Source: Patescibacteria group bacterium
Lineage (GTDB): Bacteria > Patescibacteriota > Minisyncoccia > Minisyncoccales > PEYH01
Assembly (NCBI GenBank): GCA_018900835.1
Contig: JAHIFQ010000009.1
Span: forward strand, 1,624-65,623
Direction: 5' to 3'
DNA: 64,000 bases
The notes under the pieces are model-generated. The model was not told the origin of the DNA. It made no database searches and saw nothing but the letters and a program-made list of their open reading frames with translations. This document shows positions 3,137-63,366 of this stretch, piece by piece (within the stretch, counting starts at the first letter, position 1; each line of letters opens with the position of its first letter). The translations under genes and the position numbers were made by a program.

Positions 3137-4093
3137 ATGGCCAAAAAATTTTTCCAATTCAATATTTTCGCACAGTGTAAGAGATATCAAATTCCTGCAT
3201 GGCAATGCCCCGAGTTTTTATTTTTTATTATGGGCATAATAATCATCATCTCAAGTATCTCATTTTATGCGATAGGCGAAAGATATGTGTCAGACCCCAG
3301 AATAGTGGCGTTAATTGTAATGATAGTTTCCATGACCCTTCTTGTCATCGCTTTCACGATTACACGCAGTTTTGAGGACTTGGCTGAAGCAAATAGAATG
3401 AAGGCAGAGTTTGTTAATATCGTTTCCCACCAATTGAGAGCTCCATTGACCAATTTAAGGTGGGCAACCCAATTTCTTCTGTCAGAAGATTTTTCCACAG
3501 TGGCTAAAAAACTTTCTACTGGCAAAGAATCAGAATACTTTGATATTATAAAAGAAAATTCTTACAGGATGGAACAATTGATTGATGATTTGCTTACCAT
3601 TACTCGCTTAAAAGATGGTAGAACCAACAGCAAGAGGACAAAATTTTCTTTAGCAGGCATTACCAAGGGCACTATGGAAGAATGCCGGGCAATTGCATCA
3701 GCGTCTAATCTGTCAATAGAATTGAATGAGGATAAAAATGCGCCTTTAGTTTTTTCCAGTTATCCATTGATAAAGATAGTAGTTGATAACCTTTTGGGCA
3801 ATGCTATCAACTACAGCAATGGCGGCGGTAAAATAGCGATTAAAATTAAGTCATTGCCAAAAAAGGTCCAATTTGAGATAACAGATGAAGGCATTGGGAT
3901 TCCTGCAGAGGACCGGAAATATATTTTTGAAAAATTTTTCCGAGCCAAAAATGCTGTTAAGGCCGAGGTCTATGGAACCGGATTAGGGCTTTTTATCGCG
4001 AAATTAATTATTGACCAAATGAAAGGAAGGATTTGGTTTAAATCACAACAAGACAAAGGCACAACCTTTTATTTCACGCTACCAATCAATTAA
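3137..4093 (+). CDS. Membrane sensor histidine kinase
   Basis: Two N-terminal TM segments. HisKA H-box FVNIVSHQLRAPLT. HATPase_c N/G boxes NLLGNAINYS, TDEGIGIP, GTGLGLFIAKLII. Confidence 0.9.
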   Translation: MAKKFFQFNIFAQCKRYQIPAWQCPEFLFFIMGIIIIISSISFYAIGERYVSDPRIVALIVMIVSMTLLVIAFTITRSFEDLAEANRMKAEFVNIVSHQLRAPLTNLRWATQFLLSEDFSTVAKKLSTGKESEYFDIIKENSYRMEQLIDDLLTITRLKDGRTNSKRTKFSLAGITKGTMEECRAIASASNLSIELNEDKNAPLVFSSYPLIKIVVDNLLGNAINYSNGGGKIAIKIKSLPKKVQFEITDEGIGIPAEDRKYIFEKFFRAKNAVKAEVYGTGLGLFIAKLIIDQMKGRIWFKSQQDKGTTFYFTLPIN

Positions 4094-4132
4094 TCACTAA
4101 TCACTAATAACTAATCAATAATAATTAATTAT
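4091..4132 (+). repeat. Heptamer tandem array taatcac/taatcac/taataac/taatcaa/taataat/taattat
   Basis: Read directly. The array starts at the kinase TAA stop and ends 10 nt before the receiver ATG. Confidence 0.8.
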
Positions 4133-4142
4133 TTCTACTATT

Positions 4143-4532
4143 ATGAGCAAAATTTTATTCATAGAAGATGAGGCAGCTATCCAAAAAACGCTTGGTGAGT
4201 CGTTGCGCTCAAGAGGTTTTGATGTGAAGTCAGCGCTTGATGGCGAAATAGGTCTCCGCTTGGCGAAGAGCGAAAAGCCGGACTTAATTCTTTTAGACCT
4301 GATATTGCCCAAAAAACACGGGTTAGAAGTTTTAGAGGAGTTGAGGAAAGATGAAACCACATCAAATATTCCGGTAATGATACTAACTAATTTGGAAAAC
4401 GCCGGAGAGGTTGAAAAAGCAATTGAGCTTGGAGCAACCACTTATTTAGTAAAGGCAAACTACAGCTTGAACGAGGTCATAGAAAAAGTTGAACAAGCCC
4501 TGGCAAAAAAAAACATAGACAGCAAGGCATAA
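4143..4532 (+). CDS. Stand-alone response regulator receiver (CheY-like)
   Basis: Receiver motifs IEDE, DLILLDLILPKKHG (phospho-Asp), TNL..., ATTYLVK. No output domain. Confidence 0.9.
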   Translation: MSKILFIEDEAAIQKTLGESLRSRGFDVKSALDGEIGLRLAKSEKPDLILLDLILPKKHGLEVLEELRKDETTSNIPVMILTNLENAGEVEKAIELGATTYLVKANYSLNEVIEKVEQALAKKNIDSKA

Positions 4533-4557
4533 TTAATTTTTTACTCTGTTTTTTATT

Positions 4558-6312: not shown

Positions 6313-6322
6313 CTCAAAATTT

Positions 6323-7539: not shown

Positions 7540-7574
7540 CGTAAAGCGAAAAACACAAAACACAAAATAAAAAG
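7540..7574 (-). repeat. Heptamer array of the TTTTRYG/CTTTRCG flavour (reads cgtaaag/cgaaaaa/cacaaaa/cacaaaa/taaaaag on +)
   Basis: Read directly between the pilC stop and the GTG start at 7574. Same unit family as 44221-44270 and 46653-46754. Confidence 0.65.
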
Positions 7575-9430
7575 TGAAAAAGATAAAAAAGAAATTATCC
7601 AATAAAGGATTGACTCCCCGCTTTTTTTCTTACAATCAAAATGGGGGGTTCACCTTAATAGAGGTGCTTGTTGCCACTCTTTTAATCTCCATTATTTTTT
7701 TGGGGATTTTCGGCGGTTTTCAGTTAGCAGTAAGGGTAGTGGCGCAATCCAAAGCCAGAATGCAGGCAGTGTATTTGGCGTCAGAAAAAATAGAAGAGAT
7801 GCGAGGATTGAACTTTGTTGACATTGAAACAACCCAAGAAAGTATTGTCGTTAATGGCGTTGAATATAATACGGAAACAATAGTAGAGGATTTTGACGAT
7901 TGCGCGGACGGGACTATTGAGGGATTTGATTGTTCTGGAGCAATTGTTTTGCCGGATACCGCGCCTGATGATTATAAAAAAATAAAAGTAAGGGTTTCCT
8001 GGCAGACCTTTTTTGGCGGTGAAATGGTTTTAAGCTCTTATGCTGCCTCTGAATCATTGGAAACAGGGGAAGGCAAGGGGGCTATGAGGGTTTCTTTAAG
8101 CGATAGCTTGGGCCAGCCAATAGAGATTTTGACTGGGGACCAATTAGCCCCATGTTCTGCGAGTTCAATCAATATAATAAACAATGGGTATGGCCTTGAC
8201 CAATGTTATGGCACAGATACCAATAACCCCGGGGTCAGGGTTTTAATTTTGGATGAGTCATTGGAGCCGGATGATTATAAAATTATTGTTTCAAAGAGTG
8301 GTTATGCCGCAGCCGAGACATTTCGTTCTGGAGACACATACGGAGGAACAATAATCTCCACGCCAAACAGGAAAAATCCAACAATCAATGAAGGAGAGCT
8401 CTATCCGATTACTTTTATCATTGATTTGTTGAGCGATTTGAATATTAGCACAGCGCTCGCTTGGAGCGGAGATAGTTTTTTTGATACTTTTCTGAACCAG
8501 AACAAAATCTCTACAATAGAGAATCTTATTGTATCCAACGGACAAGCAACTCTAGCAACCAGCTCCCCTATTAGTTATTTTGATTCAGGATATTTAGAAT
8601 CAACGCCAATAGTTCCCGGCGAGATTACTGAATGGTATGATTTTGAATGGTCGGAATTAGAAGACACAGATACAGATATTACATATCAGGTCTTTTATGC
8701 AACCAGTAGTTCGTGGCTTTTGGTTCCTGATATTGATATCCCGGGAAATAGCAGTGGCTTAGAAATGTCACCCGTTGATTTAAGCCAAATGGATATTAAT
8801 AAATATTCTGAATTAAAAATAGGGGCGAATTTTTCAACAAGCGATGTCCTTAAAACACCCACCTTATATGAATGGCGCGCTTCTTGGAAGAATGGCGAGG
8901 AGACAATTATTTCCAATGTGAGTTTCGATATTAGGGGAGACAAGACAGTTGGGACAGATATCGAGGAATACTTGATTTATAAATATTCAGAAACACTAAC
9001 ATCAGATTCAGGCGGGCATAAATTAATATCAGGATTAGAAACAGATAATTACTATTTTTCAGGTTTTATAAAAAACGGAAGCGCGCTTAATCTTAACAGT
9101 AGTTTGAGCCCAATGCCTTTTAATCTTTTATCAGGCACAAGCACGGGATTTACTCTATACCTTGAATCAGACAATTCTTTACTCGTTAAAGTTAAAGATG
9201 TTTCAATCGCAGAGCCGGTTTTTGGCGCTGGAGTCCGACTTTCCAATCAAGGATTAGGATATGATGTGAGCTTGACTACGAATGAGTCAGGAGAAGCGTT
9301 GTTCCTTCCTTTGCAAATAAGCGCAAATTATGTTTTAGAGATTCAGGCGCAAAATTATTATGAAGAAACGATTCCTATTGCTGTTTCAGGAAATAATTAT
9401 AAAGAAGTAGGCATAGAGAGATATGAATAA
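7574..9430 (+). CDS. Giant prepilin-type protein (618 aa) with N-terminal cleavage/methylation motif
   Basis: GGFTLIEVLVATLLISI class III signal (G/FTLIE with Glu at +5) after a basic leader. The large beta-rich ectodomain ends in a carboxypeptidase-regulatory-like segment (my reading). GTG start. Confidence 0.75.
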   Translation: MKKIKKKLSNKGLTPRFFSYNQNGGFTLIEVLVATLLISIIFLGIFGGFQLAVRVVAQSKARMQAVYLASEKIEEMRGLNFVDIETTQESIVVNGVEYNTETIVEDFDDCADGTIEGFDCSGAIVLPDTAPDDYKKIKVRVSWQTFFGGEMVLSSYAASESLETGEGKGAMRVSLSDSLGQPIEILTGDQLAPCSASSINIINNGYGLDQCYGTDTNNPGVRVLILDESLEPDDYKIIVSKSGYAAAETFRSGDTYGGTIISTPNRKNPTINEGELYPITFIIDLLSDLNISTALAWSGDSFFDTFLNQNKISTIENLIVSNGQATLATSSPISYFDSGYLESTPIVPGEITEWYDFEWSELEDTDTDITYQVFYATSSSWLLVPDIDIPGNSSGLEMSPVDLSQMDINKYSELKIGANFSTSDVLKTPTLYEWRASWKNGEETIISNVSFDIRGDKTVGTDIEEYLIYKYSETLTSDSGGHKLISGLETDNYYFSGFIKNGSALNLNSSLSPMPFNLLSGTSTGFTLYLESDNSLLVKVKDVSIAEPVFGAGVRLSNQGLGYDVSLTTNESGEALFLPLQISANYVLEIQAQNYYEETIPIAVSGNNYKEVGIERYE

Positions 9431-14600: not shown

Positions 14601-14656
14601 GTTAAAAATGAAAAGTTAAAAATAAAAGATAAAATTAGAAATTAGAAATTAATATT
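14601..14656 (+). repeat. Heptamer array gttaaaa/atgaaaa/gttaaaa/ataaaag/ataaaat/tagaaat/tagaaat/taatatt
   Basis: Read directly. It contains a 23-mer also found inside tsaD (antisense of 44501-44556) and a 23-mer shared with 44981-45003. Confidence 0.75.
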
Positions 14657-14740: not shown

Positions 14741-14777
14741 CCAAAAACCCTTGTATTTACAAGGGTTTTTGGGTTTT
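14741..14777 (+). terminator. Terminator hairpin after tRNA-His (copy 1 of a repeated hairpin)
   Basis: ccaaaaaccctt gtatttac aagggtttttgg, then gtttt. Confidence 0.6.
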
Positions 14778-15911: not shown

Positions 15912-15996
15912 AAATCATTTATAATCTTCAATCTATTCGGTGCTTGACTCAACGGGTTCTAATATCGTCCGATAGACGACCCTGTCATTCGGAAAC

Positions 15997-16031
15997 CCAA
16001 AAACCCTTGTAGTAAATGAAGGGTTTTTTGG
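15997..16031 (+). terminator. Terminator hairpin after the Fic gene (copy 2 of the repeated hairpin)
   Basis: ccaaaaaccctt gtagtaaatg aagggttttttgg, with arms nearly identical to 14741-14777. Confidence 0.6.
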
Positions 16032-20928: not shown

Positions 20929-20963
20929 AATAGTAAATAATCAATAATAAATAATAAATAATG
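20929..20963 (+). repeat. Heptamer array aatagta/aataatc/aataata/aataata/aataatg
   Basis: Read directly. It ends 4 nt before tRNA-Ser(CGA). Confidence 0.65.
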
Positions 20964-21083: not shown

Positions 21084-21118
21084 GAGTAGTTAGTAATTAG
21101 TAATTAGTAGTTAGGACA
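21084..21118 (+). repeat. Heptamer array gagtagt/tagtaat/tagtaat/tagtagt/taggaca
   Basis: Read directly. gtagttagg (21105-21113 approx) pairs with cctaactac about 40 nt downstream. Confidence 0.65.
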
Positions 21119-34220: not shown

Positions 34221-34226
34221 AAAAAT

Positions 34227-35006: not shown

Positions 35007-35010
35007 AATT

Positions 35011-35586: not shown

Positions 35587-35625
35587 TGAGAGTATTTAAT
35601 AAAAGTTAAATATAAATTTTAGAAA

Positions 35626-36393: not shown

Positions 36394-36501
36394 CTTCCTG
36401 TGGACAAAATACTTGCTTTTTTACGCTTAAGGATTAAAATAGTATAATAAAACAAAACTTCAAAGGTCGGTTAATTGAAAAAAAATAATCAATAAAAAAC
36501 A

Positions 36502-36876
36502 ATGAACAAGAAAATATTGGGGATAATGAGTTTGGTTGTGATTGGAGGACTATGCTTTGCGCCATATTTGGCTTTAGCAGCACCAACTCCTCCTTCTGTA
36601 GGACTCACGCCAAGCCCAACAGACCCGCCGAATATAGACCCAAATGCATTACTTGCAGTGATAATTAGATATGTATTTGGTTTCATGATAGTCGTAGTAG
36701 TTCTAATGCTTATGATTTCTGCTTATATGTTTGTAACAGCAGGGGGTAGCCCAGAACAAGTAGGAAAAGCAAAAAATTTCCTTATTTATGCCTTAATCGG
36801 ATTAGCTGTTGCTGTTTTAGCCAGAGGATTAGTTGGTATAGTGTTGACTATGCTTTGGGGAGCCTCAACAACATAA
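36502..36876 (+). CDS. Minimal VirB2/TrbC-like pilin-type protein (paralog 5)
   Basis: Signal peptide ..LALAAP, Pro/Thr/Ser linker TPPSVGLTPSPTDPP, then LMLMISAYMFVTAGGSPEQVGKAKNFLIYALIGLAVAVLARGLVGIV. Confidence 0.6.
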   Translation: MNKKILGIMSLVVIGGLCFAPYLALAAPTPPSVGLTPSPTDPPNIDPNALLAVIIRYVFGFMIVVVVLMLMISAYMFVTAGGSPEQVGKAKNFLIYALIGLAVAVLARGLVGIVLTMLWGASTT

Positions 36877-43500: not shown

Positions 43501-43563
43501 TTAATCAATAATGATTAATCATTTATCGCTAATCACTTATCATTGGTCATTGATGATTAATCA
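43501..43563 (+). repeat. Heptamer array ttaatca/ataatga/ttaatca/tttatcg/ctaatca/cttatca/ttggtca/ttgatga/ttaatca
   Basis: Read directly. It fills the spacer between the prsW-like start and the tsaD stop (which lies inside the last unit). Confidence 0.75.
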
Positions 43564-44771
43564 GCGATGCGGAGATTTGGTTCTGCTTTGATTTTATTCC
43601 AATTTATCGCTTTTTTATTTGGGATTCGCAGATACGCAGACATTGCTATCATCGCCGCGTTATCTGTGCAGTATTTGCCACTTGAAACAATTAGGTTAGC
43701 TTCTGGACTGTATTCTTGAACTTTTTTTTCAAATTGTATTCTTAATTCTTTATTCGCTGCCACGCCTCCGCCGAGCATAATTGTTTTTACTCTATAATCC
43801 CTCGCTGCTTTAAGGGTTTTCTTGATTAACACATCGATAATTGCTTGTTGGGCTTCTTTTGCAATCAGGCGGATATATTCTTTTGATTTTTTTATTTTAC
43901 TGTTTCTTTTTATATAATCATACAATACTGATGTTTTAAGTCCAGAAAAACTAAAATCATAATCCTTGGTATTGAGCATTGGCCTCGGCAGTTTTATTGA
44001 TAATTTATCATTGATCATTGATGATTGCTTGGCTTGTTGGGCAATGACTGGTCCGCCAGGGTAGCCAAGACCAAGGATTCTTGCTATTTTATCAAATGCT
44101 TCGCCAGCAGCATCATCTCTTGTCTCTCCCAATATCTTATATTGCCCAATTTTTTTTACTAAGATAATCTGCGTATGCCCACCGCTTACTATCAAACAAA
44201 TCGCAGGCAATTTAATTTTATTTTCTGTTTTCTGTTTTACGTTTTGCGTTTTGCGCTTTGCGCTTTCGCCAATTGGCGTTAGCCAATTGGCGAGTAGGTG
44301 TCCCTCAATATGATTCACTGGAATTATTGGTACTCCCCACCAATAGGCGAGCGCTTTGGCGAAATTAACCCCAGTCCAAAGACAGGGGTCAAGGCCAGGG
44401 CCTACAGTCACTGCGATATAATCAATCTCCGGCTTCTGATATTTTCCCAAAAACTTCTCTGTTTTATCGTAAAGGAATTTTTCTCTTTCTAATATATTTT
44501 TTAATTTTAGATTTTTAACTGTAATTTTTAACTTTTCATTTTTAACTTTTAACTTAAGCATATTTGTTGCCCTTAAACCTTGTTCTAAAAGCGGGACAAG
44601 ATTTTTTTGGTGTTCCCTCCGCGCAAAAGATGGATACACTCCTCCCCATTTTTTATGAATCTCCTTTTGCGATGAGATAAGATTAGACATTAATTTAAAA
44701 TCTTTGGCAGATGGTTCTGCCAAAGCAATACAAGTATCATCGCAGGATGTTTCTATTGCTAAAATTTTCAT
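43557..44771 (-). CDS. tsaD: tRNA N6-adenosine threonylcarbamoyltransferase TsaD, carrying two low-complexity insertions
   Basis: MKILAIETSCDDT, VTVGPGL, VNHIEGHLLA, IVSGGHTQII, GETRDDAAGEAFDK, GYPGGP motifs. The extra segments LKLKVKNEKLKITVKNLKLKN and ESAKRKTQNVKQKTENK are encoded by heptamer arrays. Confidence 0.92.
   Translation of the reverse strand: MKILAIETSCDDTCIALAEPSAKDFKLMSNLISSQKEIHKKWGGVYPSFARREHQKNLVPLLEQGLRATNMLKLKVKNEKLKITVKNLKLKNILEREKFLYDKTEKFLGKYQKPEIDYIAVTVGPGLDPCLWTGVNFAKALAYWWGVPIIPVNHIEGHLLANWLTPIGESAKRKTQNVKQKTENKIKLPAICLIVSGGHTQIILVKKIGQYKILGETRDDAAGEAFDKIARILGLGYPGGPVIAQQAKQSSMINDKLSIKLPRPMLNTKDYDFSFSGLKTSVLYDYIKRNSKIKKSKEYIRLIAKEAQQAIIDVLIKKTLKAARDYRVKTIMLGGGVAANKELRIQFEKKVQEYSPEANLIVSSGKYCTDNAAMIAMSAYLRIPNKKAINWNKIKAEPNLRIAD
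44221..44270 (+). repeat. Seven-unit heptamer array ttttctg/ttttctg/ttttacg/ttttgcg/ttttgcg/ctttgcg/ctttcgc inside the tsaD CDS
   Basis: Read directly. The antisense strand translates to ESAKRKTQNVKQKTEN within TsaD. Confidence 0.8.
44501..44556 (+). repeat. Eight-unit heptamer array ttaattt/tagattt/ttaactg/taatttt/taacttt/tcatttt/taacttt/taactta inside the tsaD CDS
   Basis: Its reverse complement contains gttaaaaatgaaaagttaaaaat, a 23-nt exact match to intergenic 14601-14623. Confidence 0.8.
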
Positions 44772-44844: not shown

Positions 44845-45005
44845 CAATTTTCAATTTACAATTTTCAATGAAATTACAAATCTTAATTTCCAAACCAAAT
44901 TTTGAAAATTAGTGCTTGGTATTTATTTGGGATTTGAAAATTAAAAATTTGATTCAAAATTCGAGTTTCATTCAAAATTCAAAATTAGAAATTAAAAATT
45001 AATTC
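44845..45005 (+). repeat. 161-nt spacer readable as 23 consecutive heptamers in one register (caatttt/caattta/caatttt/caatgaa ... ttcaaaa/ttcaaaa/ttagaaa/ttaaaaa/ttaattc)
   Basis: Read directly. The middle units are degenerate. It ends 1 nt before tRNA-Glu. Confidence 0.6.
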
Positions 45006-45091: not shown

Positions 45092-46678
45092 ATGCCTGAT
45101 AAATATTATCTAAGAATTGCTTTTGCGTCTGATTTGAAAAAAACAAGCGAGCGGTTATTATACCGCTTTTTAGAAATGCTGCCTGGCATAATAACATGGA
45201 CAACCCTTCTCGGCGCAATTCTGTTGTCTTATCTTAAGCCCATATTGATATCCATTTTTATTATCATTTTTGTAATATATTGGCTTTCCAAGACAATATA
45301 TTTTTCGTTTCACCTAAGAGTAAGTTATCAAAAAATGAAGCAAAACATAGAAATTGACTGGTTAGGCAAGTTGAACAAGCTTGGTACACCCTCCAACGGA
45401 CTGCCGATTCATCACTGGAATGAAATATACCATTTAATAGTTCTGCCAATGTATAAGGAGCCGTATGAAGTTGTAAGAGAATCCATAAAATCGCTTTTAA
45501 GAACTGATTATCCCAAAGACAAAATGATTGTTATTTTAGCCCAAGAAGAGAGGGCTGGAAATGATTTCAATAATGAATTGTCCAAGAAGATAGGTCAGGA
45601 ATTTAAAAATAGTTTTTATCAATTTTTTATTACTGTCCACCCAAAGGACTTACCCGGGGAAATAGCAGCAAAGTCCTCAAATGAAACATGGGCAGCCAAG
45701 AAGGCAAAGGAGCTAATATCTGTGCTCAATATTCCTTTTGAAAAAGTCATTTTTTCATCTTTTGACATAGACACAGTTGTTTCTGCCGATTACTTCGGCT
45801 GTCTTACTCATCACTATTTAACTACCCCAAAGCCATTGCGAACCAGTTTTCAACCAATCCCTTTGTTTTTAAACAATGTCTGGCAAGCCCCTGGAATATC
45901 AAGGGTATTTTCTTTTTCTTCAAGCTTTTGGCATTTGATTAATCAGCAAAGACCGGAAAAATTAATAACTTTTTCATCGCACTCAATGCCGTTCAAGGCA
46001 TTAGTTGATGTTGGTTTTAAGCAAACAGATGTTGTTTCAGATGATTCCCGGATTTTTTGGCAATGCCTTTTATTTTATGATGGCGATTATCGCGCAGAGC
46101 CGTTGAATTGTTCCATATCCATGGATGCCAATGCAGCAGAAACGCTTCGCAGAACTATTGTTCATATGTATAAACAACAAAGAAGGTGGGCTTATGGCGC
46201 AGGAGAAATTCCTTATTTTATTTTCGGATTTTTAAAGAATAAAAAAATATCTCTCAAAAGAAAGATTGCCTTAGCATTTGAAGCTATAGAGGGGCACTGG
46301 AATTGGGCTTGCGCCCCCATCCTTATTTTCGCCTTGGGCTGGCTTCCGATTTATCTTGGTGGCTCGGAATTTACCCAAACGATTTTTTCATACAATCTGC
46401 CAAAAATACTCGGCAGAATTCTTACAATTTCTATGCTTGGCTTGATTATGTCTATGTATTACACTTTTTATCTTTTGCCCCCAAAACCAAACACCAAGAA
46501 ACAGAAATTAAATATTTTGTGGGCCTGTGTGCAATGGATATTGGTGCCCTTTACAATGATATTTTTTACTGCTTTTCCAGCCATAGACGCGCAGACAAGA
46601 TTGCTTTTGGGGAAATATATGGGATTCTGGCCAACCCCGAAGCACAGGAAAGTGCAAAGCGTAAAACAAAAAGCGTAA
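45092..46678 (+). CDS. Membrane-embedded processive GT2 glycosyltransferase (cellulose/chitin-synthase-like, QxxRW type)
   Basis: LPMYKEPYEVV, DKMIVILAQEE, SFDIDT and QQRRWAYGA (Q-x-x-R-W), flanked by N- and C-terminal TM bundles. Confidence 0.7.
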   Translation: MPDKYYLRIAFASDLKKTSERLLYRFLEMLPGIITWTTLLGAILLSYLKPILISIFIIIFVIYWLSKTIYFSFHLRVSYQKMKQNIEIDWLGKLNKLGTPSNGLPIHHWNEIYHLIVLPMYKEPYEVVRESIKSLLRTDYPKDKMIVILAQEERAGNDFNNELSKKIGQEFKNSFYQFFITVHPKDLPGEIAAKSSNETWAAKKAKELISVLNIPFEKVIFSSFDIDTVVSADYFGCLTHHYLTTPKPLRTSFQPIPLFLNNVWQAPGISRVFSFSSSFWHLINQQRPEKLITFSSHSMPFKALVDVGFKQTDVVSDDSRIFWQCLLFYDGDYRAEPLNCSISMDANAAETLRRTIVHMYKQQRRWAYGAGEIPYFIFGFLKNKKISLKRKIALAFEAIEGHWNWACAPILIFALGWLPIYLGGSEFTQTIFSYNLPKILGRILTISMLGLIMSMYYTFYLLPPKPNTKKQKLNILWACVQWILVPFTMIFFTAFPAIDAQTRLLLGKYMGFWPTPKHRKVQSVKQKA

Positions 46679-46687
46679 AACAACAAT
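46653..46687 (-). repeat. Heptamer array (reads tgcaaag/cgtaaaa/caaaaag/cgtaaaa/caacaat on +) covering the last codons and stop of the GT2 gene
   Basis: Read directly. It encodes ...VQSVKQKA*. Confidence 0.7.
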
Positions 46688-46719
46688 TTAAAATTTAAAC
46701 TTTTATTTTTGCACTGTTA

Positions 46720-46754
46720 TTTTGCGCTTTACACTTTACGCTTTACGCTTTATT
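46720..46754 (+). repeat. Heptamer array ttttgcg/ctttaca/ctttacg/ctttacg/ctttatt, inverted relative to 46653-46687
   Basis: Read directly. It abuts the recG stop (46750-46752). The two arrays can pair (aaagcgtaaa / tttacgcttt). Confidence 0.7.
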
Positions 46755-49105: not shown

Positions 49106-50086
49106 ATGAGAGTTATTTTATCTCCGCAAAAACAGAAAAAATTAATGCAAGCCATTTTGTCTCGTATCTCAGTGAAAGATGTAGCAAAAGCATGCTCTCT
49201 TTCCGAGAGAACAATTAGAGATTGGCGTAGAGCAAAGTTTTCAATAGACCTAAAGGCTCTGCGTAAATTATGTAGCAAAACTAATATTCCCTTTCCTTCT
49301 AATGCTGAATTAAAGGATGATTATTGGTATACAGATGATGGCTCATCCGCTGGTGGCCTGGCAGTTTATAAAAAATATGGGAGAGTTGGAGGAGATCCTG
49401 AATATCGGAAGAAGAAATGGTATGAATGGTGGGAGAGAGAGGGACAATATAGAAATAATTTAATAGCTGGCCACCCTCTTCCTTTTAAGAAGCCAAAATT
49501 GTCTCAAAGTTTGGCAGAGTTTGTCGGGATTATTTTAGGCGATGGTTCTGTTGCTGAAAGACAAATTGTTATAACGCTCCATAGTAAAGATGATAGGGAA
49601 TATGGTAGATTTATCGTTAGTTTAATAAAAAAATTATTTAATGTGCCAGTGGGTACCTATTTAAGGAAGGATCAAGCAACAATTAATTTTATTATTTCAA
49701 GAACTAAATTGGTTAATTTTATGGTTGGAAAGCTTGGACTGGTGAGAGGAGACAAAGTGAAACAACAAGTAGATGTTCCAAAATGGATAAAAGAAAACAA
49801 GAGATACGTGATTGCCTGTATTCGTGGACTCATAGACACCGATGGGTGTGTTTTTGATCATCGTTATAAAGTGAATGGAAAGGCTTATAGCTATAAAAAA
49901 CTTTCTTTTACAAATCATTCTAAGCCACTTCTCGAATTTGTTTTTAACAATTTAAAGAGGAATAAATTAAATCCTAGATTGGCACGGGATACAGATGTTT
50001 TTCTTGATAGCAAAGAAGATATGAAAAGATATTTCAGAATCATTAATTCTCATAACCCTAAACACTTGAAGAGATATTCAAAATGA
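49106..50086 (+). CDS. Free-standing double-motif LAGLIDADG homing endonuclease with N-terminal HTH
   Basis: LAEFVGIILGDGSV and ACIRGLIDTDGCV are the two LAGLIDADG motifs. N-terminal VKDVAKACSLSERTIRDW is the HTH. Confidence 0.8.
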   Translation: MRVILSPQKQKKLMQAILSRISVKDVAKACSLSERTIRDWRRAKFSIDLKALRKLCSKTNIPFPSNAELKDDYWYTDDGSSAGGLAVYKKYGRVGGDPEYRKKKWYEWWEREGQYRNNLIAGHPLPFKKPKLSQSLAEFVGIILGDGSVAERQIVITLHSKDDREYGRFIVSLIKKLFNVPVGTYLRKDQATINFIISRTKLVNFMVGKLGLVRGDKVKQQVDVPKWIKENKRYVIACIRGLIDTDGCVFDHRYKVNGKAYSYKKLSFTNHSKPLLEFVFNNLKRNKLNPRLARDTDVFLDSKEDMKRYFRIINSHNPKHLKRYSK

Positions 50087-50114
50087 GATAAGATAAGCTA
50101 AAGTAAGCATTTTG

Positions 50115-50202
50115 GGAGGAGTACTCAAAAGGTTACGAGAGCGGGTTGCTAACCCGTAGGGGTTTAAAAAGCCTCTTGTGGGTTCGAATCCCACCTCCTC
50201 CG
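50115..50202 (+). tRNA. tRNA-Ser (anticodon GCT)
   Basis: GGAGGAG..CTCCTCC G, GCGGG TTGCTAA CCCGT, long variable arm, T arm GTGGG TTCGAAT CCCAC. Confidence 0.85.
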
Positions 50203-50296
50203 CAGACGAATATAGATGAGGAGGCACTGAGCACAGTAGTGCGAATGTGCCAAATATTTAAGTTAGAATAAATAGCGCCAGATACTAATTTTAAAT

Positions 50297-50380
50297 GGAG
50301 GAGTCGCATAGTGGTTTAGTGCACCGGTTTTGAAAACCGGCGTCCGCAAGGACTCGTGGGTTCGAATCCCACCTCCTCCG
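50297..50380 (+). tRNA. tRNA-Ser (anticodon TGA)
   Basis: Same acceptor and T arm as 50115. CCGGT TTTGAAA ACCGG. Confidence 0.85.
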
Positions 50381-50463
50381 CAGATGCAATTTCTTATCGG
50401 AGCGACCCGAGCGATTAATTTAAAAAATGAAATAAGGATTTTCAGAAGAATCAAAATATCAAT

Positions 50464-51150
50464 ATGGATTTACAGGAATTTAAAAATAAAGTCATATGTG
50501 AAGAGTTAGAAATTCCTGAAGATTATGGAAAGATTTTTTCTTTTGTAGATTTTTCTAATGTAAATAGATGGTTTGAAAATGATAATCAAGATTGGAATAA
50601 TAAATTGCTTACTAACAGCGAGAAGCTTTCTATAGATCTTGAAAAGTTAAAATCATTTACAGATATTTTTAGCGAAAAGGTAAGGATATATTACGGAGAA
50701 GATTCTAAAAATCAAGGGTCGCTAAAATTTACTTATGTAATCAGAAAAATATTCGGAAAACGAAATGTAGTAATAAAAGATTTACAGAGAATAAAGCATT
50801 ATATTGAATTAGAGGGGGCAGATAACATTAAGCATATTTTTAGAGATAAGGATGGGAGATATTATGCGGAAATTAGAAAATGTAATTTTGATGTAGAAAT
50901 TTCTGTTGATGCTATTAAAATGCTTCGGCACTATGATACTTTTTGCATTCTTTCGAGCGATGCGGACTTTACATATTTAAACAACTTTTTAAGAAAAGAA
51001 GGAAAGAAAGTTATTATAATAAAAGGTGGATTTATTACTGCTAAGCTAAGGGAATCGGCTGACTTAGTTATCAATGCTCAAAAGATAAAAAAATATATAG
51101 CTCGAATAATAAAAGACAAAGACCTGACTGAGTCAGGTCTTTGTGGATAG
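50464..51150 (+). CDS. NYN-domain (LabA/PIN-like) putative RNase
   Basis: FSFVDFSNVN, KCNFDVEISVDAIKM, DTFCILSSDADFTYLNNFLRKEGKKVIII match the NYN motif series. Confidence 0.65.
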   Translation: MDLQEFKNKVICEELEIPEDYGKIFSFVDFSNVNRWFENDNQDWNNKLLTNSEKLSIDLEKLKSFTDIFSEKVRIYYGEDSKNQGSLKFTYVIRKIFGKRNVVIKDLQRIKHYIELEGADNIKHIFRDKDGRYYAEIRKCNFDVEISVDAIKMLRHYDTFCILSSDADFTYLNNFLRKEGKKVIIIKGGFITAKLRESADLVINAQKIKKYIARIIKDKDLTESGLCG

Positions 51151-53812: not shown

Positions 53813-54337
53813 ATGAAATACGCTATTATCATTGTCGCTGTGAGCATATTGATTTCCCTGACATTGGGCATTTTCTTAGTTTGGCCTCAATACAGGGGCT
53901 TTAGAGATATACAGAGTCAGTTGAATCAGAAAGAATTGCAGTTGGAAAATCAGAATAAATATATTCAATCACTGAAGGTCGCTAAAAAAGAAATGGATGA
54001 GCGGTCGGATATAGTTTCTAAAATTGAGAGCGCTCTCCCCATTGGTTCTGACGCGCCTTCTTTGCTTGAGTTCCTGCAAAACGCATCTGCCTCATCTGGC
54101 ATTAGTTTGGACAATATTAGCTTGGAAAAGGCCTCTCCTGGCGACGAAAAAGAGAGGGTTAAGAGCCATTTTTTCAGCGCAGAATTGTCTGGTTCTTATT
54201 TTTCATTTAAAAATTTCTTATTTGCCCTTGAGACGAGTTCCCGCTTGATAGAGGTGGAGCAAACAAATTTTTCTGTGCCATTAACAGAAGGGCAATCAGC
54301 ATTGATTAAAATTAGAGCAAGAATCAGTTCGTATTAA
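53813..54337 (+). CDS. PilO-like bitopic protein, set 2
   Basis: N-terminal TM, coiled coil QLNQKELQLENQNKYIQSL, alpha/beta C-terminus. Confidence 0.5.
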   Translation: MKYAIIIVAVSILISLTLGIFLVWPQYRGFRDIQSQLNQKELQLENQNKYIQSLKVAKKEMDERSDIVSKIESALPIGSDAPSLLEFLQNASASSGISLDNISLEKASPGDEKERVKSHFFSAELSGSYFSFKNFLFALETSSRLIEVEQTNFSVPLTEGQSALIKIRARISSY

Positions 54338-54376
54338 TAACTAATAACTGATAACTGATTAATGATTAATGATTAA
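54335..54376 (+). repeat. Heptamer array taataac/taataac/tgataac/tgattaa/tgattaa/tgattaa
   Basis: Read directly. It starts at the TAA stop and ends 3 nt before the next ATG. Confidence 0.85.
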
Positions 54377-54379
54377 TTT

Positions 54380-60580: not shown

Positions 60581-60589
60581 GGCTGAATA

Positions 60590-60613
60590 GGTTGGCAGGT
60601 TGGCAGGTTGGCA
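60590..60613 (+). repeat. Three tandem copies of the octamer ggttggca
   Basis: Read directly. The last copy runs into cataat (-10-like). Confidence 0.75.
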
Positions 60614-60671: not shown

Positions 60672-60685
60672 GTAATGATTTATTA

Positions 60686-61531
60686 ATGATTATTTATTAT
60701 TTGTTAATTTTTATATTCGGTCTTATAGTGGGTTCATTTTTGAACTGCGTGATTTATCGGTTGGAGAAAAAGGAGAGTTTTTTACATGGCAGGTCATTTT
60801 GTCCTAATTGCAAGCATTCTTTAGCTTGGTATGACCTGATTCCATTATTGAGTTTTATTCTTCTGCGCCGAAAATGCCGTTATTGCCATAAATCAATCTC
60901 TTGGCAATATCCAATTATAGAAACAGCAACAGGGGCGCTATTTCTGCTAATTTTCAATTTCTCCGCCCAAGGCGGGCAGGCAATTTTCAATGAAATCTCA
61001 ATTTTCAACAGTTCGGCCATGAGCTCACTGCCGAATGGTTTTCAATTTTTAAACTTTGTCTATTATTTATTGATTGCCTGTTTCCTCATTGTTATTTTTG
61101 TTTATGACTTGAAGCATTTCATAATCTTGGACAAGGTCTTGATTCCAGCAATCGCCATATCTTTGATATATAGGTTAGTCGGCGCCTTGTTTTTGAATAA
61201 TCAATTATCAATTATTAATTATCTGCTTTCTGCTTTTGGCGCTGCTGGTTTTTTCCTTTTGATATATTTGATCTCCAAGGGCAAGTGGCTTGGATTTGCA
61301 GATGTTAAATTGGTAATACTTTTGGCAATGATTTTGGGCTGGCCTAAAATAGCCCTGTCTTTGTTTTTAAGTTTTTTCATCGGTGCTATAATAGGTATAG
61401 GACTGATAGTTTTCTCCGGGAAAAAGCTTAAAAGCGAAGTTCCGTTTGCCCCATTTTTAATAACCGGAACATTGATTGCCTTATTTTGGGGTCAGCATCT
61501 CATTGATTGGTATTCCGCTTTGATTTTCTGA
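60686..61531 (+). CDS. pilD: Prepilin peptidase/N-methyltransferase PilD (A24 family) with a repeat-derived insertion
   Basis: GSFLNCVIYRL, CPNC...CRYC zinc motif, YPIIETATGALF, FVYDLKHFIILD and GFADVKL catalytic Asp regions. The segment FNFSAQGGQAIFNEISIFN is encoded by repeat DNA. Confidence 0.88.
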   Translation: MIIYYLLIFIFGLIVGSFLNCVIYRLEKKESFLHGRSFCPNCKHSLAWYDLIPLLSFILLRRKCRYCHKSISWQYPIIETATGALFLLIFNFSAQGGQAIFNEISIFNSSAMSSLPNGFQFLNFVYYLLIACFLIVIFVYDLKHFIILDKVLIPAIAISLIYRLVGALFLNNQLSIINYLLSAFGAAGFFLLIYLISKGKWLGFADVKLVILLAMILGWPKIALSLFLSFFIGAIIGIGLIVFSGKKLKSEVPFAPFLITGTLIALFWGQHLIDWYSALIF

Positions 61532-61605
61532 TAAATGATTAATGATAAATCCGCCCGAGGCGGGCAGGCCCGCCTCGGGAGGGCAAGTGATAAATGATAA
61601 ATAAT
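61529..61605 (+). repeat. Heptamer array tgataaa/tgattaa/tgataaa interrupted by a 38-nt GC-rich hairpin element, then tgataaa/tgataaa/taattat
   Basis: The hairpin is cccgaggcggg cagg cccgcctcggg (61553-61578). The 20-mer tccgcccgaggcgggcaggc matches pilD CDS 60962-60981 at 19 of 20 positions. Confidence 0.8.
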
Positions 61606-62145
61606 TATTGTTCAACAAAGAGTAAGGAGACAGGCATGACCTTGGTTGAGGCCTTGATTACCGTTGCGATAGTAGGAATTTTATTGGCAACAAGCTTTTT
61701 GGCTTATCGGCCAAGAGGGCAGGAGCTTGCCCTGCAGAGGTCTGCTTTCAAGATTGCATCTGATATTGAGATTGTTAGAGAAATGGCAATGTCAGCGCGG
61801 AAAAATGTTGGCGGAGAAATTCCTATTGGCGGATACGGTATTTATTTTGACATTGCAAATCCATCGTCTTATATTCTATTCGCTGATTCAGACGCAAGCA
61901 AGAATAGAAAATCAGACGGTTCCGAAGATATTAAAACATTAGACATAGAAGACGGAATAGTGTTAAGTATTTTGTCGCCCTCTAATCCAGTAAACATCAC
62001 ATTTGTTTCTCCTTCCCCTGATGTTTTTTTACAAGGAGGCGCCACAGTGGGACAAATAGATATAACCGTAGCAATACAAGCGGATATTTCTAAGACAAAA
62101 ATTATCTCTATAAACAAGGCGGGATTGATTTCCACTGACCAATGA
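61594..62145 (+). CDS. Minor pilin, GspH/FimT-like
   Basis: Leader MINNYCSTKSKETG then MTLVEALITVAIVGILLA (Glu at +5). 183 aa. Confidence 0.7.
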   Translation: MINNYCSTKSKETGMTLVEALITVAIVGILLATSFLAYRPRGQELALQRSAFKIASDIEIVREMAMSARKNVGGEIPIGGYGIYFDIANPSSYILFADSDASKNRKSDGSEDIKTLDIEDGIVLSILSPSNPVNITFVSPSPDVFLQGGATVGQIDITVAIQADISKTKIISINKAGLISTDQ

Positions 62146-62219
62146 TCACTAATTAATGATTGCTGATTACTGATTAATAATCACTGATAAATGATTAATA
62201 ATAAATGATTAATAATAAC
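62143..62219 (+). repeat. Eleven-unit heptamer array tgatcac/taattaa/tgattgc/tgattac/tgattaa/taatcac/tgataaa/tgattaa/taataaa/tgattaa/taataac
   Basis: Read directly. It begins at the TGA stop and contains the next gene's ATG and its MINNN codons. Confidence 0.85.
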
Positions 62220-62738
62220 GGATTTACATTGATAGAAATGCTTATCACCGTCTCTGTGGTGAGCGTTGGCATTGTTGGCGTTTTTATGTCGGTCCAACAA
62301 GGGATAATTGCAATTGATTACGCTAACTCCCGATTTACCGCAGCCCTACTTGCTCAAGAGGGAGTAGAAATTATTAAAAGCATTAGAGACACGAATCTTT
62401 TGGAATATAATTATGTTTCCACTGGCACTGCTTGGAACGAGGGAATTAGAACAGGAGATATTGAAGCACAGTATACAGACCCTCAATTAACAGAACCCGC
62501 CATGACACAACCAATATGTAGTCCAAGTTGTGACCCTGATGATATCAGGTTCCTTAAAAAATCCATTACAGGATTTTACAATTACGATACAGGGGATGAT
62601 AGCAGATTTAAAAGATTGATTCATATAGAATCACCGAATGCTGACCAAATGGATGCGACTATTACTGTTTTTTGGAACAAGAGGGGCGGAGGGTATTATA
62701 GTATTTCTCTGCTTCAGCATTTATATAATTGGTGGTAG
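62205..62738 (+). CDS. Minor pilin, PilV-like
   Basis: MINNNGFTLIEMLITVSVVSVGIVGVFMSVQQG. Confidence 0.7.
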   Translation: MINNNGFTLIEMLITVSVVSVGIVGVFMSVQQGIIAIDYANSRFTAALLAQEGVEIIKSIRDTNLLEYNYVSTGTAWNEGIRTGDIEAQYTDPQLTEPAMTQPICSPSCDPDDIRFLKKSITGFYNYDTGDDSRFKRLIHIESPNADQMDATITVFWNKRGGGYYSISLLQHLYNWW

Positions 62739-62758
62739 ATTCCTTCGTCAAACAAAAA

Positions 62759-63310
62759 ATGCAAAACAGGAAACAAAAAAAGAGAAATAATAAAAATAAT
62801 GGCTTTACCCTTATTGAGGTTGTTGTTGTGGCAGGGATATTTAGTGTTTTAATGATAGTTATTTCAGGAGTTTTTATTGCAGCTCTCAAAGCAGAGAGGA
62901 ATATTCTTGAGTCCAAAAAAGTTTTAGGAGAATTAAGTTATGCTATAGAATATATGACCCGGGCCTTGAGAATGGCGGAAAAAGACACTTCTGGCACCTG
63001 TATCCCTAATGGTTCTAATTATCAATTAACAGCCAGGGACGGCATAAAATTTATTAATATTCTTCAATCAAGCGCTTGCCAGGAATTTTTTGTAAATGAT
63101 GGGAAAATCAAGTATGCGACAGGGGCTGAAGAACTTGAGCTAACCTCTGCAGATGTAAATGTTTTAGTGTTAAAGTTTGAGATTATTAATGAGACAGAAT
63201 CAGATAATCTCCAGCCATTTGTAACGATACAGATTAAGGCAGACACGCCTAACAGCACAACGCTTGAACTTCAGACCAGTGTTTCGCAAAGAAATCCTGA
63301 TATCAGATAA
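62759..63310 (+). CDS. Minor pilin, PilW-like prepilin-type protein
   Basis: Basic leader MQNRKQKKRNNKNNG then FTLIEVVVVAGIFSVLMIV. ATG 62759 preferred over TTG 62729. Confidence 0.65.
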   Translation: MQNRKQKKRNNKNNGFTLIEVVVVAGIFSVLMIVISGVFIAALKAERNILESKKVLGELSYAIEYMTRALRMAEKDTSGTCIPNGSNYQLTARDGIKFINILQSSACQEFFVNDGKIKYATGAEELELTSADVNVLVLKFEIINETESDNLQPFVTIQIKADTPNSTTLELQTSVSQRNPDIR

Positions 63311-63331
63311 TAATCTTCTAATAGAAGTATG

Positions 63332-63366
63332 TAAGTGATAAGTGATAACAAATCAATGATTAGCAA
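63332..63366 (+). repeat. Heptamer array taagtga/taagtga/taacaaa/tcaatga/ttagcaa
   Basis: Read directly. It spans the alternative GTG/ATG starts of the next gene. Confidence 0.6.

Follow-up and report, generated by a model that had tools for sequence, protein, structure and literature searches.

Over-representation of heptanucleotide repeats has been known in cyanobacteria since 1990 and in bacteria since 2007, and CPR genomes were still undescribed at the time of the 2007 survey of simple-sequence repeats (SSRs). The STRR of heterocystous cyanobacteria, which Mazel reportedly described in 1990 (cited in PMC4692102), are said to be degenerate tandem heptanucleotides in several dispersed, mostly intergenic families; to our knowledge, in-frame arrays inside housekeeping genes are not part of that description. 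Small dispersed repeats, or very small mobile elements, were reportedly described in Nostoc by Elhai in 2008 (cited in PMC3116915 and PMC2884548).

The survey of Mrázek, Guo and Shah (2007), as relayed in later work (PMC4679880, PMC4692102), treats heptanucleotide long SSRs in prokaryotes as patchy and mostly intergenic, with period 7 dominant. TAACTGA direct repeats have been published for Beggiatoaceae, Cyanobacteria and Bacteroidetes (MacGregor 2015, PMC4679880), and comparable behavior, including 7-nt indels between strains and a slippage hypothesis, has been described (PMC4679880, PMC4692102). A literature search directed in part at CPR/Patescibacteria returned no report of heptamer arrays in CPR, which agrees with an initial reading made from the DNA letters (the sequence-only reading).

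The stretch analyzed here (the window) is 64,000 nt long. The sequence-only reading had proposed that it comes from a CPR-like host and that STRR-like heptamer arrays organize many of its short gene junctions. The relatives of its TsaD place the lineage in the CPR (Parcubacteria/Paceibacterota). The likeness to cyanobacterial STRR holds for the heptanucleotide tandem units, the several degenerate families and the many dispersed loci; however, the phylum is different, the canonical units CCCCAGT, TTGGTCA and CAACAGT are absent here save for a single TTGGTCA at 43543, and the closest analog is not STRR1-3 but the TAACTGA direct repeats (PMC4679880), which are identical in kind to the T[AG]AT[ACT]A[AC] family that dominates here. 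The arrays are thus of a kind already known from cyanobacteria and Beggiatoa, to which the CPR occurrence is an addition, and within CPR the trait is clade-specific rather than universal. With a probability of roughly 60%, we interpret them as dispersed heptanucleotide long SSRs that are shaped by slippage and inter-array exchange and tolerated at unconstrained sites.

A period of seven nucleotides

The arrays in the window are real. TRF returns 28 period-7 rows against 3.0±1.7 (maximum 8) in 100 segment-wise dinucleotide shuffles. Intergenic identity exceeds that of the shuffles at lag 7 (z = 6.4), lag 14 (4.8) and lag 21 (4.3), and coding DNA taken whole has no excess over shuffles at these lags; TRF and lag-7 comparisons of this kind had been suggested in the sequence-only reading. 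An independent match/mismatch detector recovers 13 segments (452 nt) at period 7 and 0–1 at each other period from 4 to 13. Grouped by unit, the 86 arrays from the window and related loci make up 61 families, with period 7 alone enriched among non-triplet periods, and TNANTRA arrays of at least three units number six in the window against 0.015 expected.

Chance low complexity or an assembly artifact would be favored by the AT-richness of the window (36–41% GC) and by the shortness or degeneracy of several claimed arrays. Yet the excess over shuffles, its restriction to period 7, the count of TNANTRA arrays, the presence of orthologous arrays in other genomes and the identity of assemblies from three samples rule this explanation out, and its probability is negligible. 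The window is matched 100% by an ENA assembly and by Logan assemblies from two separate sequencing runs, which jointly cover ~47 kb, include most arrays and reproduce these exactly. The independent consensus assemblies from the three samples display no array-length polymorphism within the population, a point against the slippage-and-exchange reading; slippage is therefore either slow or hidden by the consensus assemblies. Individually, the arrays at 4091, 54335, 62143, 43501, 20929, 21084, 44221, 46653 and 46720 read as had been claimed, and those at 63332-63366 and 7540-7574 are also arrays but short and weak.

Arrays at gene junctions

On the plus strand, a T[AG]AT-family array of six units (4091..4133; TRF and detector; lag-7 identity 0.71) extends from the histidine-kinase stop (TAA 4091-4093) to 9 nt short of the response-regulator ATG at 4143. 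A second plus-strand array of six TAATAAC/TGATAAC/TGATTAA units (54335..54377; TRF and detector; lag-7 identity 0.86) begins at the stop codon of PilO, ends 3 nt short of the following ATG and contains an exact (TAACTGA)2 within 54338-54372. The TsaD-to-PrsW spacer on the minus strand is filled by nine TGATTAA-family units (43501..43563; TRF), which give TsaD its stop codon and end 3 nt before the PrsW ATG. A CGYAAAR/AAAACAC array (7540..7580, plus strand; TRF and detector; lag-7 identity 0.72; short) fills the 39-nt gap that separates PilC (T2SSF) from a pilin-like gene. As the sequence-only reading had stated, arrays start at stop codons: the ORF ends at 4093, 54337, 61531 and 62145 fall in the first array unit, the stops at 4091, 54335, 61529 and 62143 being its first triplet. 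Seven of the eight co-directional spacers of 39–62 nt are array-filled, and none of the co-directional spacers that are shorter than this, or longer than 100 nt, is an array. Short junctions are therefore sites that arrays organize, but not the sole ones, with in-frame arrays occurring in TsaD and the prepilin peptidase.

These arrays resemble the TAACTGA repeats (PMC4679880) in several respects. TGATAAC is TAACTGA rotated, with one- and two-position variants mixed in; the repeats point forward to the start codon and finish a few nucleotides upstream of it, and in the window, besides the arrays at 4091, 43501 and 54335, those at 62143 and 63332 enclose the ATG itself, a placement relative to the ATG that recurs in the orthologous arrays of the related genomes L003 and L004. 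Further shared features are the lack of a Shine-Dalgarno (SD) site between repeat and start, three-frame stops that often overlap the upstream stop codon, 7-nt-step indels between relatives and occasional copies within ORFs. The differences lie in the very compact, essentially SD-less CPR/Parcubacteria host, in the co-dominance of TAACTGA with TGATTAA, TAATCAC and TAATAAC (related heptamers being rare as repeats in BOGUAY), in arrays that often span the whole spacer from stop to start, and in arrays that encode pilin leader peptides.

The placement raises the alternative that the T[AG]AT/TAACTGA-type arrays function as RNA elements, offering the ribosome (protein S1) or a Csp/CsrA-like protein a place to bind or stand by; such elements would set downstream translation without SD and stop upstream ribosomes in every frame. 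For Beggiatoaceae an equivalent proposal has been made (PMC4679880). The T[AG]AT family has the sense of transcription at all seven independent junctions, the minus-strand operon included, and the gap from array end to ATG is ~3 nt in the window, L003 and L004. This fixed orientation and gap suggest that, over and above tolerance, selection acts on the RNA or on translation, and count against the slippage-and-exchange reading. SD-like motifs occur in only 3 of 63 genes, and an SD-like 4-mer 4–13 nt upstream is absent from all array-preceded genes. By predicted RNA folding, four of nine array-containing stretches (three of the four being arrays) are no more structured than shuffles, as would suit such elements, and in Nostoc reporters deletion of heptamer repeats alters expression about 2-fold (bioRxiv 10.1101/2022.06.06.494920). 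Against this, some arrays fold significantly via self-complementary units (z -2.5 to -3.8), one orthologous junction holds 8, 9 or 18 copies whose unit sequences drift freely, most operon junctions are spacers of 0–36 nt with no array, unrelated unit families occupy other junctions, and one family can supplant another; nor has a binding protein been identified. We regard such an RNA element as unlikely, and a dedicated regulatory function is possible, although no finding here demands one. The composition of the units is in line with tolerance: 9 of the 13 intergenic consensus units contain stops, and 15 of the 18 units in coding sequences are cyclically stop-free in the sense direction.

Pilin leaders and the prepilin peptidase

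The prepilin peptidase gene and the pilin-like genes downstream carry several arrays, all on the plus strand. CAATTTT-type units lie in frame in the peptidase linker (60952..60995); they carry the degenerate stretch also present at 44846-44873, which is interrupted in the linker by a 19-nt GC-rich insert, TCCGCCCAAGGCGGGCAGG. A weak AATTATC-type array follows in the same coding sequence (61196..61222; TRF and detector). From the peptidase stop codon, TGATAAA/TGATTAA units (61529..61605; TRF) come as 3+3, not 11, around a nested 35-nt GC-rich hairpin at 61550-61584. A GC-rich element, TCCGCCCRAGGCGGGCAGG, is nested in the arrays at both 60962 and 61550. The claim that the 61529..61605 array supplies a pilin start at 61594 is ambiguous, because the gene caller favors the ATG at 61636. 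The TGATTAA-family array at 62143..62219 (11 units from a pilin stop codon; TRF) does include the ATG at 62205, and its encoding of the leader MINNN ahead of G|FTLIE was verified. A short, weak TAAGTGA-type array (63332..63366; TRF) contains the ATG at 63356 of a further pilin-like gene, with the leader MISNSQKG.

Arrays enclose the ATG and leader of two or more pilin-like genes (clearly at 62205, less so at 63356, and only possibly at 61594). Such arrays could be contingency loci: if a single unit were added or dropped in the interval that separates the ATG from the Gly-Phe cleavage site, the frame would shift and individual pilins would switch on or off by phase variation. The unit length is not a multiple of 3, the classic requirement, and heptanucleotide precedents exist in NeuO and HMW1A (PMC13001214, PMC8262952). 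However, the units 3' of the ATG are only two and non-identical, hence slippage there should be rare; the consensus assemblies from three samples are identical; most arrays lie outside 5' coding regions; and pilus operons are not significantly enriched in arrays given the number of junctions (about P = 0.09 by a binomial estimate). Phase variation is accordingly very improbable.

The GT2–RecG junction and tRNA flanks

At the convergent junction of the GT2 and RecG genes, a CGTAAAA-family array (46653..46687, plus strand; TRF) encodes the C-terminal tail and stop of GT2, VQSVKQKA*, a proposal of the sequence-only reading that was verified. On the minus strand, a CGTAAAG array (46720..46754; TRF), inverted relative to the former, starts from the RecG stop codon. 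Together the two are predicted to form a ~35 bp hairpin on both strands (ΔG -32.6/-36.3 kcal/mol, z about -5). Three further plus-strand arrays, all recovered by TRF and the detector, flank tRNA genes: an A-rich array of GTTAAAA/AAATTAG units between tRNA-Arg and tRNA-His (14601..14656), an AATAATA-type array immediately upstream of tRNA-Ser(cga) (20929..20962) and an AGTAATT array downstream of it (21085..21114).

In-frame arrays in TsaD

The minus-strand TsaD gene carries three in-frame arrays, which correspond to three insertions relative to solved TsaD structures. In loop 1, a GTTAAAA-type array (period 7/14; 44498..44555; TRF and detector) encodes LKLKVKNEKLKITVKNLKLK within a ~40-residue insertion; in loop 2, a CGCAAAA-family array (44221..44270; TRF and detector) encodes AKRKTQNVKQKTEN and coincides with an 18-residue insertion; and in loop 3, an array at 43996..44027 (TRF and detector) encodes QSSMINDKLSI and coincides with a 5-residue insertion. 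The placement of the loop 2 array at a gene junction by the sequence-only reading was mistaken, as it is located within the TsaD coding sequence. Residues invariant across aligned TsaD homologs are intact despite the arrays. Coding arrays are periodic at 7 nt in the DNA itself, near-perfect instances being AAATCAC x4 and AAATTTC x4.7, which rules out a protein heptad (coiled-coil) repeat lacking a 7-nt DNA period.

Between a conserved block upstream of TsaD and tRNA-Glu lies an array region (44845..45005, no strand assigned; TRF and detector) with clear arrays at 44845-44869 (CAATTTT) and 44970-45002 (ATTCAAA). This region, which had been described as 23 units in one register, has a decayed middle, where lag-7 identity is 0.47 against 0.32±0.04 in shuffles.

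Turnover in related genomes and probable inter-array exchange

Between sister genomes the arrays resize in whole 7-nt units; array length in sister genomes was a comparison that the sequence-only reading had suggested. From a conserved anchor to the ATG, the TsaD-to-PrsW junction measures 66 nt (9 units) in the window, 129 nt (18 units) in L003 and 59 nt (8 units) in L004, all in one register, and the PilO junction has six units in the window and seven in its L003 ortholog. One unit family can also be swapped for another at a given junction: the convergent RecG–GT2 junction and the tRNA-Glu-to-TsaD region both have conserved flanks and differ in unit families between the window and L003, the latter having a TAATCAC array in the tRNA-Glu-to-TsaD region. 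The GT2 tail changes likewise, from VQSVKQKA* in the window to IINN* in L003, which derives from the array of L003 itself. L003 further carries (TAACTGA)3 and (TAACTGA)2. That close relatives differ so widely at a given junction, in array length as in sequence, is a trait shared with the heptanucleotide long SSRs, as far as accounts of the 2007 survey go, and with the Xanthomonas GGGAATC repeats (PMC4692102). The window also agrees with those accounts in having tandem arrays of a 5–11-nt unit that exceed the length expected from composition, chiefly at period 7 and chiefly between genes. The units here differ from GGGAATC (PMC4692102) in being AT-rich and unable to form G-quadruplexes, and the evidence of inter-array exchange and of persistent coding-loop arrays sets these arrays apart from both.

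Specific degenerate stretches common to different loci indicate ectopic copying. The start of the 14601 array shares a 22-nt exact match with part of the TsaD loop 1 array (44524), and the 44846-44873 stretch is found again in the prepilin peptidase coding sequence. In L014, a 98-nt composite occurs in both TsaD loop 2 and a downstream spacer (91% identity, the central 60 nt being 100% identical), and the TsaD of L015 has AAATCAC x4 in two loops and a closely related AAATTAC array in a third. Deep CPR lineages retain arrays at orthologous positions, a pattern consistent with vertical descent accompanied by concerted evolution.

Two further observations count against slippage and within-genome exchange as the full account. 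The ValRS genes of L006 and L013, two distant CPR genomes, share a degenerate 31-mer (30 of 31 nt identical) at non-homologous sites with unrelated flanks, at GC contents of 35% and 48%, and a related copy exists in L014; the match between L006 and L013 is accounted for by neither in-situ slippage nor within-genome gene conversion. AAATYNC cassettes, moreover, are suspiciously uniform, with four units plus AAA in most instances found. Hence the arrays might be, or be spread by, a very small mobile element: a heptamer cassette of ~31 nt, sometimes with a nested GC-rich hairpin, inserted by a dedicated transposase-like or template-copying enzyme into spacers and in frame into genes. The duplicated L014 composite, the nested TCCGCCCRAGGCGGGCAGG copies and the presence of exact (TAACTGA)x4 on 32 IMG/VR viral contigs could be read in the same way, and by description the Nostoc small dispersed repeats are comparable in having 20–30 nt elements apparently copied between loci and hairpin inserts nested in other repeats, although the cassettes here are heptamer arrays with no mobility mechanism evident. 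However, Pfam matches, which cover most window genes, include no transposase, reverse transcriptase or similar enzyme except for one LAGLIDADG-like ORF; no terminal inverted repeats were seen; and neither defined cassette ends nor a mobilizing enzyme were found for the 31-mer, the L014 98-nt duplicate or the GC-rich insert of the window. The ValRS 31-mer has no exact match on viral contigs with one position left free, all within-genome cases are explicable by inter-array gene conversion, and the orthologous positions across deep lineages also speak against mobility. We consider such an element quite improbable.

Under the favored reading of slippage and exchange, slipped-strand mispairing with a preferred 7-nt step would create and resize the arrays, and this step may be inherent in the machinery of replication or repair, a proposal credited to Mrázek (2007). 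This reading gives no account of why the step is 7 nt, and a polymerase footprint is just an idea. Ectopic gene conversion, with the arrays themselves as homology arms, would homogenize and spread them. Selection would then act as a filter, such that sense-oriented units with stops in all frames persist between genes and cyclically stop-free units persist inside them. The arrays are confined to weakly constrained sites, namely operon-internal spacers, tRNA flanks, first and last codons and variable protein loops. There they may have been put to use passively: as stop codons, as starts that bring a pilin leader peptide with them, as loops or C-terminal tails of proteins, as spacers before SD-less start codons and, in inverted pairs, as 3' hairpins.

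Implications for CPR biology

The occurrence of TAACTGA-type heptamers in CPR extends the phenomenon to a phylum whose genomes are tiny, have few repair genes and make almost no use of SD sites; this narrows the list of candidate mechanisms. For annotation of CPR genomes, start codons, pilin leader peptides and C-terminal tails can be by-products of arrays, and so can the “CPR-specific insertions” of TsaD, ValRS and other conserved proteins. If, as the evidence indicates, arrays in spacers and arrays in coding loops exchange sequence, minimal genomes may have in this a simple way to generate new peptide segments. A bolder version, speculative and in our estimation doubtful, is that the arrays are not passive microsatellites but tiny self-propagating cassettes (~31 nt, GC-rich hairpins nested in them) able to copy from spacer to coding loop and back, and even from one distant CPR lineage to another. 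In otherwise minimal genomes they would keep supplying new ends for proteins (N-terminal leaders and C-terminal tails), new loops, new codons for starting and stopping, and terminator hairpins, and the 7-nt step would reflect one identifiable enzyme of the reduced CPR replication or repair set. If this were true, the question of why heptamers are favored would become experimentally tractable.

A specific 7-nt period in the window

The heptamer arrays are a real and statistically strong feature of the window, and the sequence-only reading, which had described them as STRR-like fillers of gene junctions in a CPR-like genome, characterized them correctly. The expected excess over shuffled sequence is borne out: Tandem Repeats Finder reports 28 period-7 rows in the window, against 3.0±1.7 (maximum 8) in 100 shuffles that preserve dinucleotides separately for every coding and every intergenic segment. 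Period 14 accounts for 8 rows and the remaining periods from 6 to 13 for 1–8 each. The autocorrelation proposed for intergenic DNA likewise places identity at lags 7, 14 and 21 above the shuffles (z = 6.4, 4.8 and 4.3), and in the same test the pooled coding DNA of the window shows only the usual period 3. A match/mismatch detector recovers 13 period-7 segments (452 nt) in the window and 0–1 for each other period from 4 to 13.

Most of the arrays fall into a 7-nt register as originally described, but a few have to be qualified. The stretch at 61529-61605 consists of three units, a 35-nt GC-rich hairpin and three further units; the arrays at 7540 and 63332 are short; and the 161-nt region at 44845-45005 has clear arrays at its ends only, its middle being decayed yet periodic (lag-7 identity 0.47 versus 0.32±0.04 in shuffles). 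The ENA assembly and the Logan assemblies of two sequencing runs, which jointly span ~47 kb of the window with most arrays included, are 100% identical to it. As no independent contig differs from the window, an assembly artefact is ruled out, and no population polymorphism is seen among these contigs.

Array-filled spacers in a CPR genome

The closest TsaD relatives among species-representative genomes belong to MAGs labeled Parcubacteria, Paceibacterota, Staskawiczbacteria and "Saccharibacteria," and because of these lineage labels the host is assigned to the CPR bacteria. In the window, 19 tRNA genes lie alongside two type IV pilus clusters and housekeeping genes. A Shine-Dalgarno (SD)-like 4-mer lies 4–13 nt 5' of the start codon in just 3 of its 63 ORFs, and the regions 5' of ORF starts are plainly A/T-rich; translation in this host appears to initiate without SD pairing.

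Co-directional spacers of up to 36 nt are array-free, seven of the eight spacers of 39–62 nt are array-filled, and those longer than 100 nt hold hairpins and promoters with no periodicity. Since the arrays fill the 39–62-nt class and neither the shorter nor the >100-nt spacers, it is the medium-length spacers that the arrays make. Lag-7 identity is 0.65–0.86 in six array-filled spacers of this class, against a background near 0.28, and 0.42 in the weak spacer at 63311; the remaining one, at 61532, contains a nested hairpin with three units on either side. A binomial estimate on the junction table, which takes the number of junctions into account, gives no significant association between arrays and pilus operons.

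Several other elements of the window deserve mention in their own right. A free-standing LAGLIDADG-like ORF (49106-50086) and a NYN-domain ORF (50464-51150) lie among tRNA genes, with a 30-nt-period repeat at 50417-50488, and most of the 49106-51150 segment is missing from the sister genome L003. Five small genes stand in a row at 33234-36876, 3' of gyrA and a methyltransferase and apart from both type IV pilus clusters; four have weak matches to PF18895 (T4SS_pilin) and one to DUF4215. An exact 8-nt tandem repeat, AGGTTGGC x3.1, occupies 60589-60613 just 5' of the prepilin peptidase start codon. A ACCCAAAAACCCTTGT-like motif occurs in both orientations at 14741-14775, 3' of tRNA-His, and at 15993-16011, 3' of the gene ending at 15911; these copies may represent a shared terminator-like element.

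Orientation of arrays and array-encoded gene ends

Arrays of the main T[AG]AT[ACT]A[AC] family (4091, 43501, 54335, 61529, 62143 and 63332) all run in the sense of their flanking genes, and this orientation also holds at the minus-strand TsaD-PrsW pair. As had been noticed, each begins at or within the stop codon of the gene ahead; at the other end they include the following ATG or stop ~3 nt short of it. The suggestion that arrays write the N-termini of two pilin-like genes holds at 62205, where the array reads ATG ATT AAT AAT AAC and supplies the leader MINNN ahead of the prepilin motif G|FTLIE, but the gene caller picked the ATG at 61636 over the one at 61594, which leaves that start ambiguous. 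A further array-encoded leader, MISNSQKG, begins at 63356.

The CGYAAAR family is found at 7540, 44221, 46653 and 46720, in the sense orientation throughout. At the convergent junction of the GT2 synthase and RecG (46648-46760), two of its copies are inverted and form a ~35-bp hairpin on either strand (ΔG -32.6 and -36.3 kcal/mol, z about -5), which may serve as a bidirectional terminator or 3' stabilizer. The C-terminus ascribed to the array is indeed that of the window GT2, which ends VQSVKQKA*. Conservation of the protein between the window and L003 extends through ...WPTPKHRK; the L003 tail is IINN*, each tail being coded by the array family of its own genome.

An Rfam scan returned only tRNAs, and a reading of the arrays as structured RNAs was rejected: folding is inconsistent among arrays, the inverted array pairs being the exception. 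In a promoter and terminator scan of ~43–47.5 kb, neither the 18 promoter-like nor the 6 terminator-like sites departed by more than ~1.4 sd from the mean of shuffles. A reading as DnaA boxes or a replication origin was likewise rejected, as the cumulative GC skew climbs across the window with small local dips and no reversal of trend, and the units, judged by eye, match the DnaA-box consensus only partially.

Arrays inside coding sequences

The view of the arrays as junction features is correct in that they fill short spacers, but they also lie in-frame within TsaD and the prepilin peptidase. The minus-strand TsaD ORF (43557-44771) has three internal arrays that match exactly the three insertions, of ~40, 18 and 5 residues, located by sequence alignment to solved TsaD structures (a single-sequence AlphaFold model was unusable, with pLDDT 39). 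Residues invariant across the aligned homologs are intact, and CAATTTT units lie in the inter-domain linker of the prepilin peptidase. The arrays are confined to weakly constrained positions, and whether a unit contains stop codons also fits its location: 15 of 18 units within coding sequence are cyclically stop-free in the sense direction, and stops are present in 9 of the 13 units between genes.

TsaD loops hold near-perfect arrays in many lineages, among them AAATTTC, CCAATTT and CGAAAATC. In the TsaD of L015, another of the compared loci (L015:4397-4951), (AAATCAC)x4 occupies two separate loops, a closely related (AAATTAC) array a third, and a TTCAAGC array a fourth position. Within a given lineage each TsaD-loop array is homogeneous, as concerted evolution would lead one to expect. 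Beside the loop-1 array, the window clade also has a conserved lineage-specific insertion, ILEREKFLYDKTEKFLGKYQKP, which, according to the alignments, neither the solved TsaD structures nor several other CPR lineages possess.

Turnover among relatives

Period-7 segments recur in most of the related loci, namely in the sister genomes L003 (6 in 21 kb) and L004 (2 in 4.8 kb) and in six other compared loci (L005, L006, L008, L010, L011 and L013); none were found in L007, L009 or the non-CPR control L012. Across 80 metagenome TsaD loci not selected for arrays and 11 genome loci, their density per 10 kb drops with falling TsaD identity to the window, from 3.46 at ≥70% to 1.36 at 49–60%, 0.28 at 41–48% and 0.19 at 36–40%. 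The trait is therefore strong in the window clade and patchy elsewhere. Seven is the leading non-triplet period in every identity bin, and the 86 arrays of all compared loci make up 61 unit families: the period is specific despite the diversity of the units. Among these loci, TNANTRA arrays of at least three units are limited to the window, L003 and L004, and lineages beyond them use other unit families.

The comparison suggested for sister genomes does show length differences, and array length shifts in whole units. From TsaD to PrsW, a conserved anchor lies 66, 129 and 59 nt from the ATG in the window, L003 and L004. The arrays here have 9, 18 and 8 units, all in the same register, and three more bases (ATT; CTT in L004) separate each from the ATG; at the PilO junction, L003 has 7 units to the window's 6. 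Families turn over as well, the RecG-GT2 junction and the tRNA-Glu/TsaD region having wholly different unit families in the window and L003. A conserved block of 59 nt immediately 5' of the TsaD start, probably the site of the TsaD promoter, is retained in both.

A copy number of 8, 9 or 18 at one junction speaks against a tuned regulatory element, as does the lack of arrays at most junctions. The arrays might nonetheless have a translational role, as unstructured A/U-rich standby sites in an SD-less genome. It is their consistent sense orientation and fixed distance to the ATG that speak for such a role, which has been proposed likewise for the TAACTGA repeats (PMC4679880), and reporter effects in Nostoc are modest (bioRxiv 10.1101/2022.06.06.494920).

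Probable copying between arrays and a possible mechanism

Arrays share sequence across loci. The tRNA-spacer array at 14601 and the TsaD loop 1 array have an exact 22-nt stretch in common, variant unit included. The AATTTTCAATTT·CAATTTTCAATGAAAT stretch at 44846 reappears in-frame in the peptidase, where 19 nt of GC-rich sequence interrupt it; this insert is the same as the first half of the hairpin within the 61529 array, and TGATAAATGATTAA occurs at three window junctions as well as in L003 and L004. The small GC-rich element of this insert, TCCGCCCRAGGCGGGCAGG, is present twice in the window: at 60962-60980, in-frame within the prepilin peptidase, and in the 35-nt junction-array hairpin at 61550-61584, whose first arm it forms. 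In the compared locus L014, a 98-nt composite, in which heptamers stand on both sides of a unique 36-nt core (CCGCTTCTAGCGGGATCCCGTCAGAATGCGGGAC), occupies both TsaD loop 2, in-frame, and the downstream TsaD-PrsW spacer (L014:675-772 and L014:1431-1528); the two copies are 91% identical across their length and fully identical (100%) in the central 60 nt. The hardest case of copying to explain is a degenerate 31-mer, AAATCCCARATTACAAATTCCAAATCACAAA (encoding KSQITNSKSQ), in the ValRS of two distant CPR genomes (L006:13223-13253 and L013:13417-13447): the copies are identical at 30 of 31 nt, at non-homologous positions with unrelated flanks, and a related copy lies at L014:1564-1594. A viral vector was considered and rejected: IMG/VR holds no copy of the 31-mer (exact matching, one position left free), and the TGATAAATGATTAA doublet occurs on a single contig there.

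We infer that the arrays would arise by slipped-strand mispairing with a favored 7-nt step and would spread by ectopic gene conversion, in which they would act as homology arms; selection would serve as a filter, followed by passive co-option. For the 7-nt step the literature offers a single proposal, a footprint of the polymerase (Mrázek 2007, as relayed by PMC4679880 and PMC4692102).

Relation to known repeats

The main family shares every tested defining feature with the published TAACTGA direct repeats: unit sequence, orientation, start-codon distance, the lack of an RBS, stops in every frame and indels of 7 nt. The definition of heptanucleotide long SSRs fits the family too, and it is like the cyanobacterial STRRs in kind, differing in that the canonical STRR units and a cyanobacterial host are absent here. 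The literature searched, with queries naming either CPR or Patescibacteria included, yielded no description of such arrays in this group. The window arrays extend an already described type of repeat, and what is worth following is the persistence of in-frame arrays in essential genes, the array-written gene ends and pilin leader peptides, the inverted-array hairpins, the GC-rich elements nested in arrays and the hints of cassette-like copying. Exact (TAACTGA)x4 is also found on 32 IMG/VR viral contigs (L099-L130), some with several arrays, and this bears on the origin of the family's patchy distribution across phyla.
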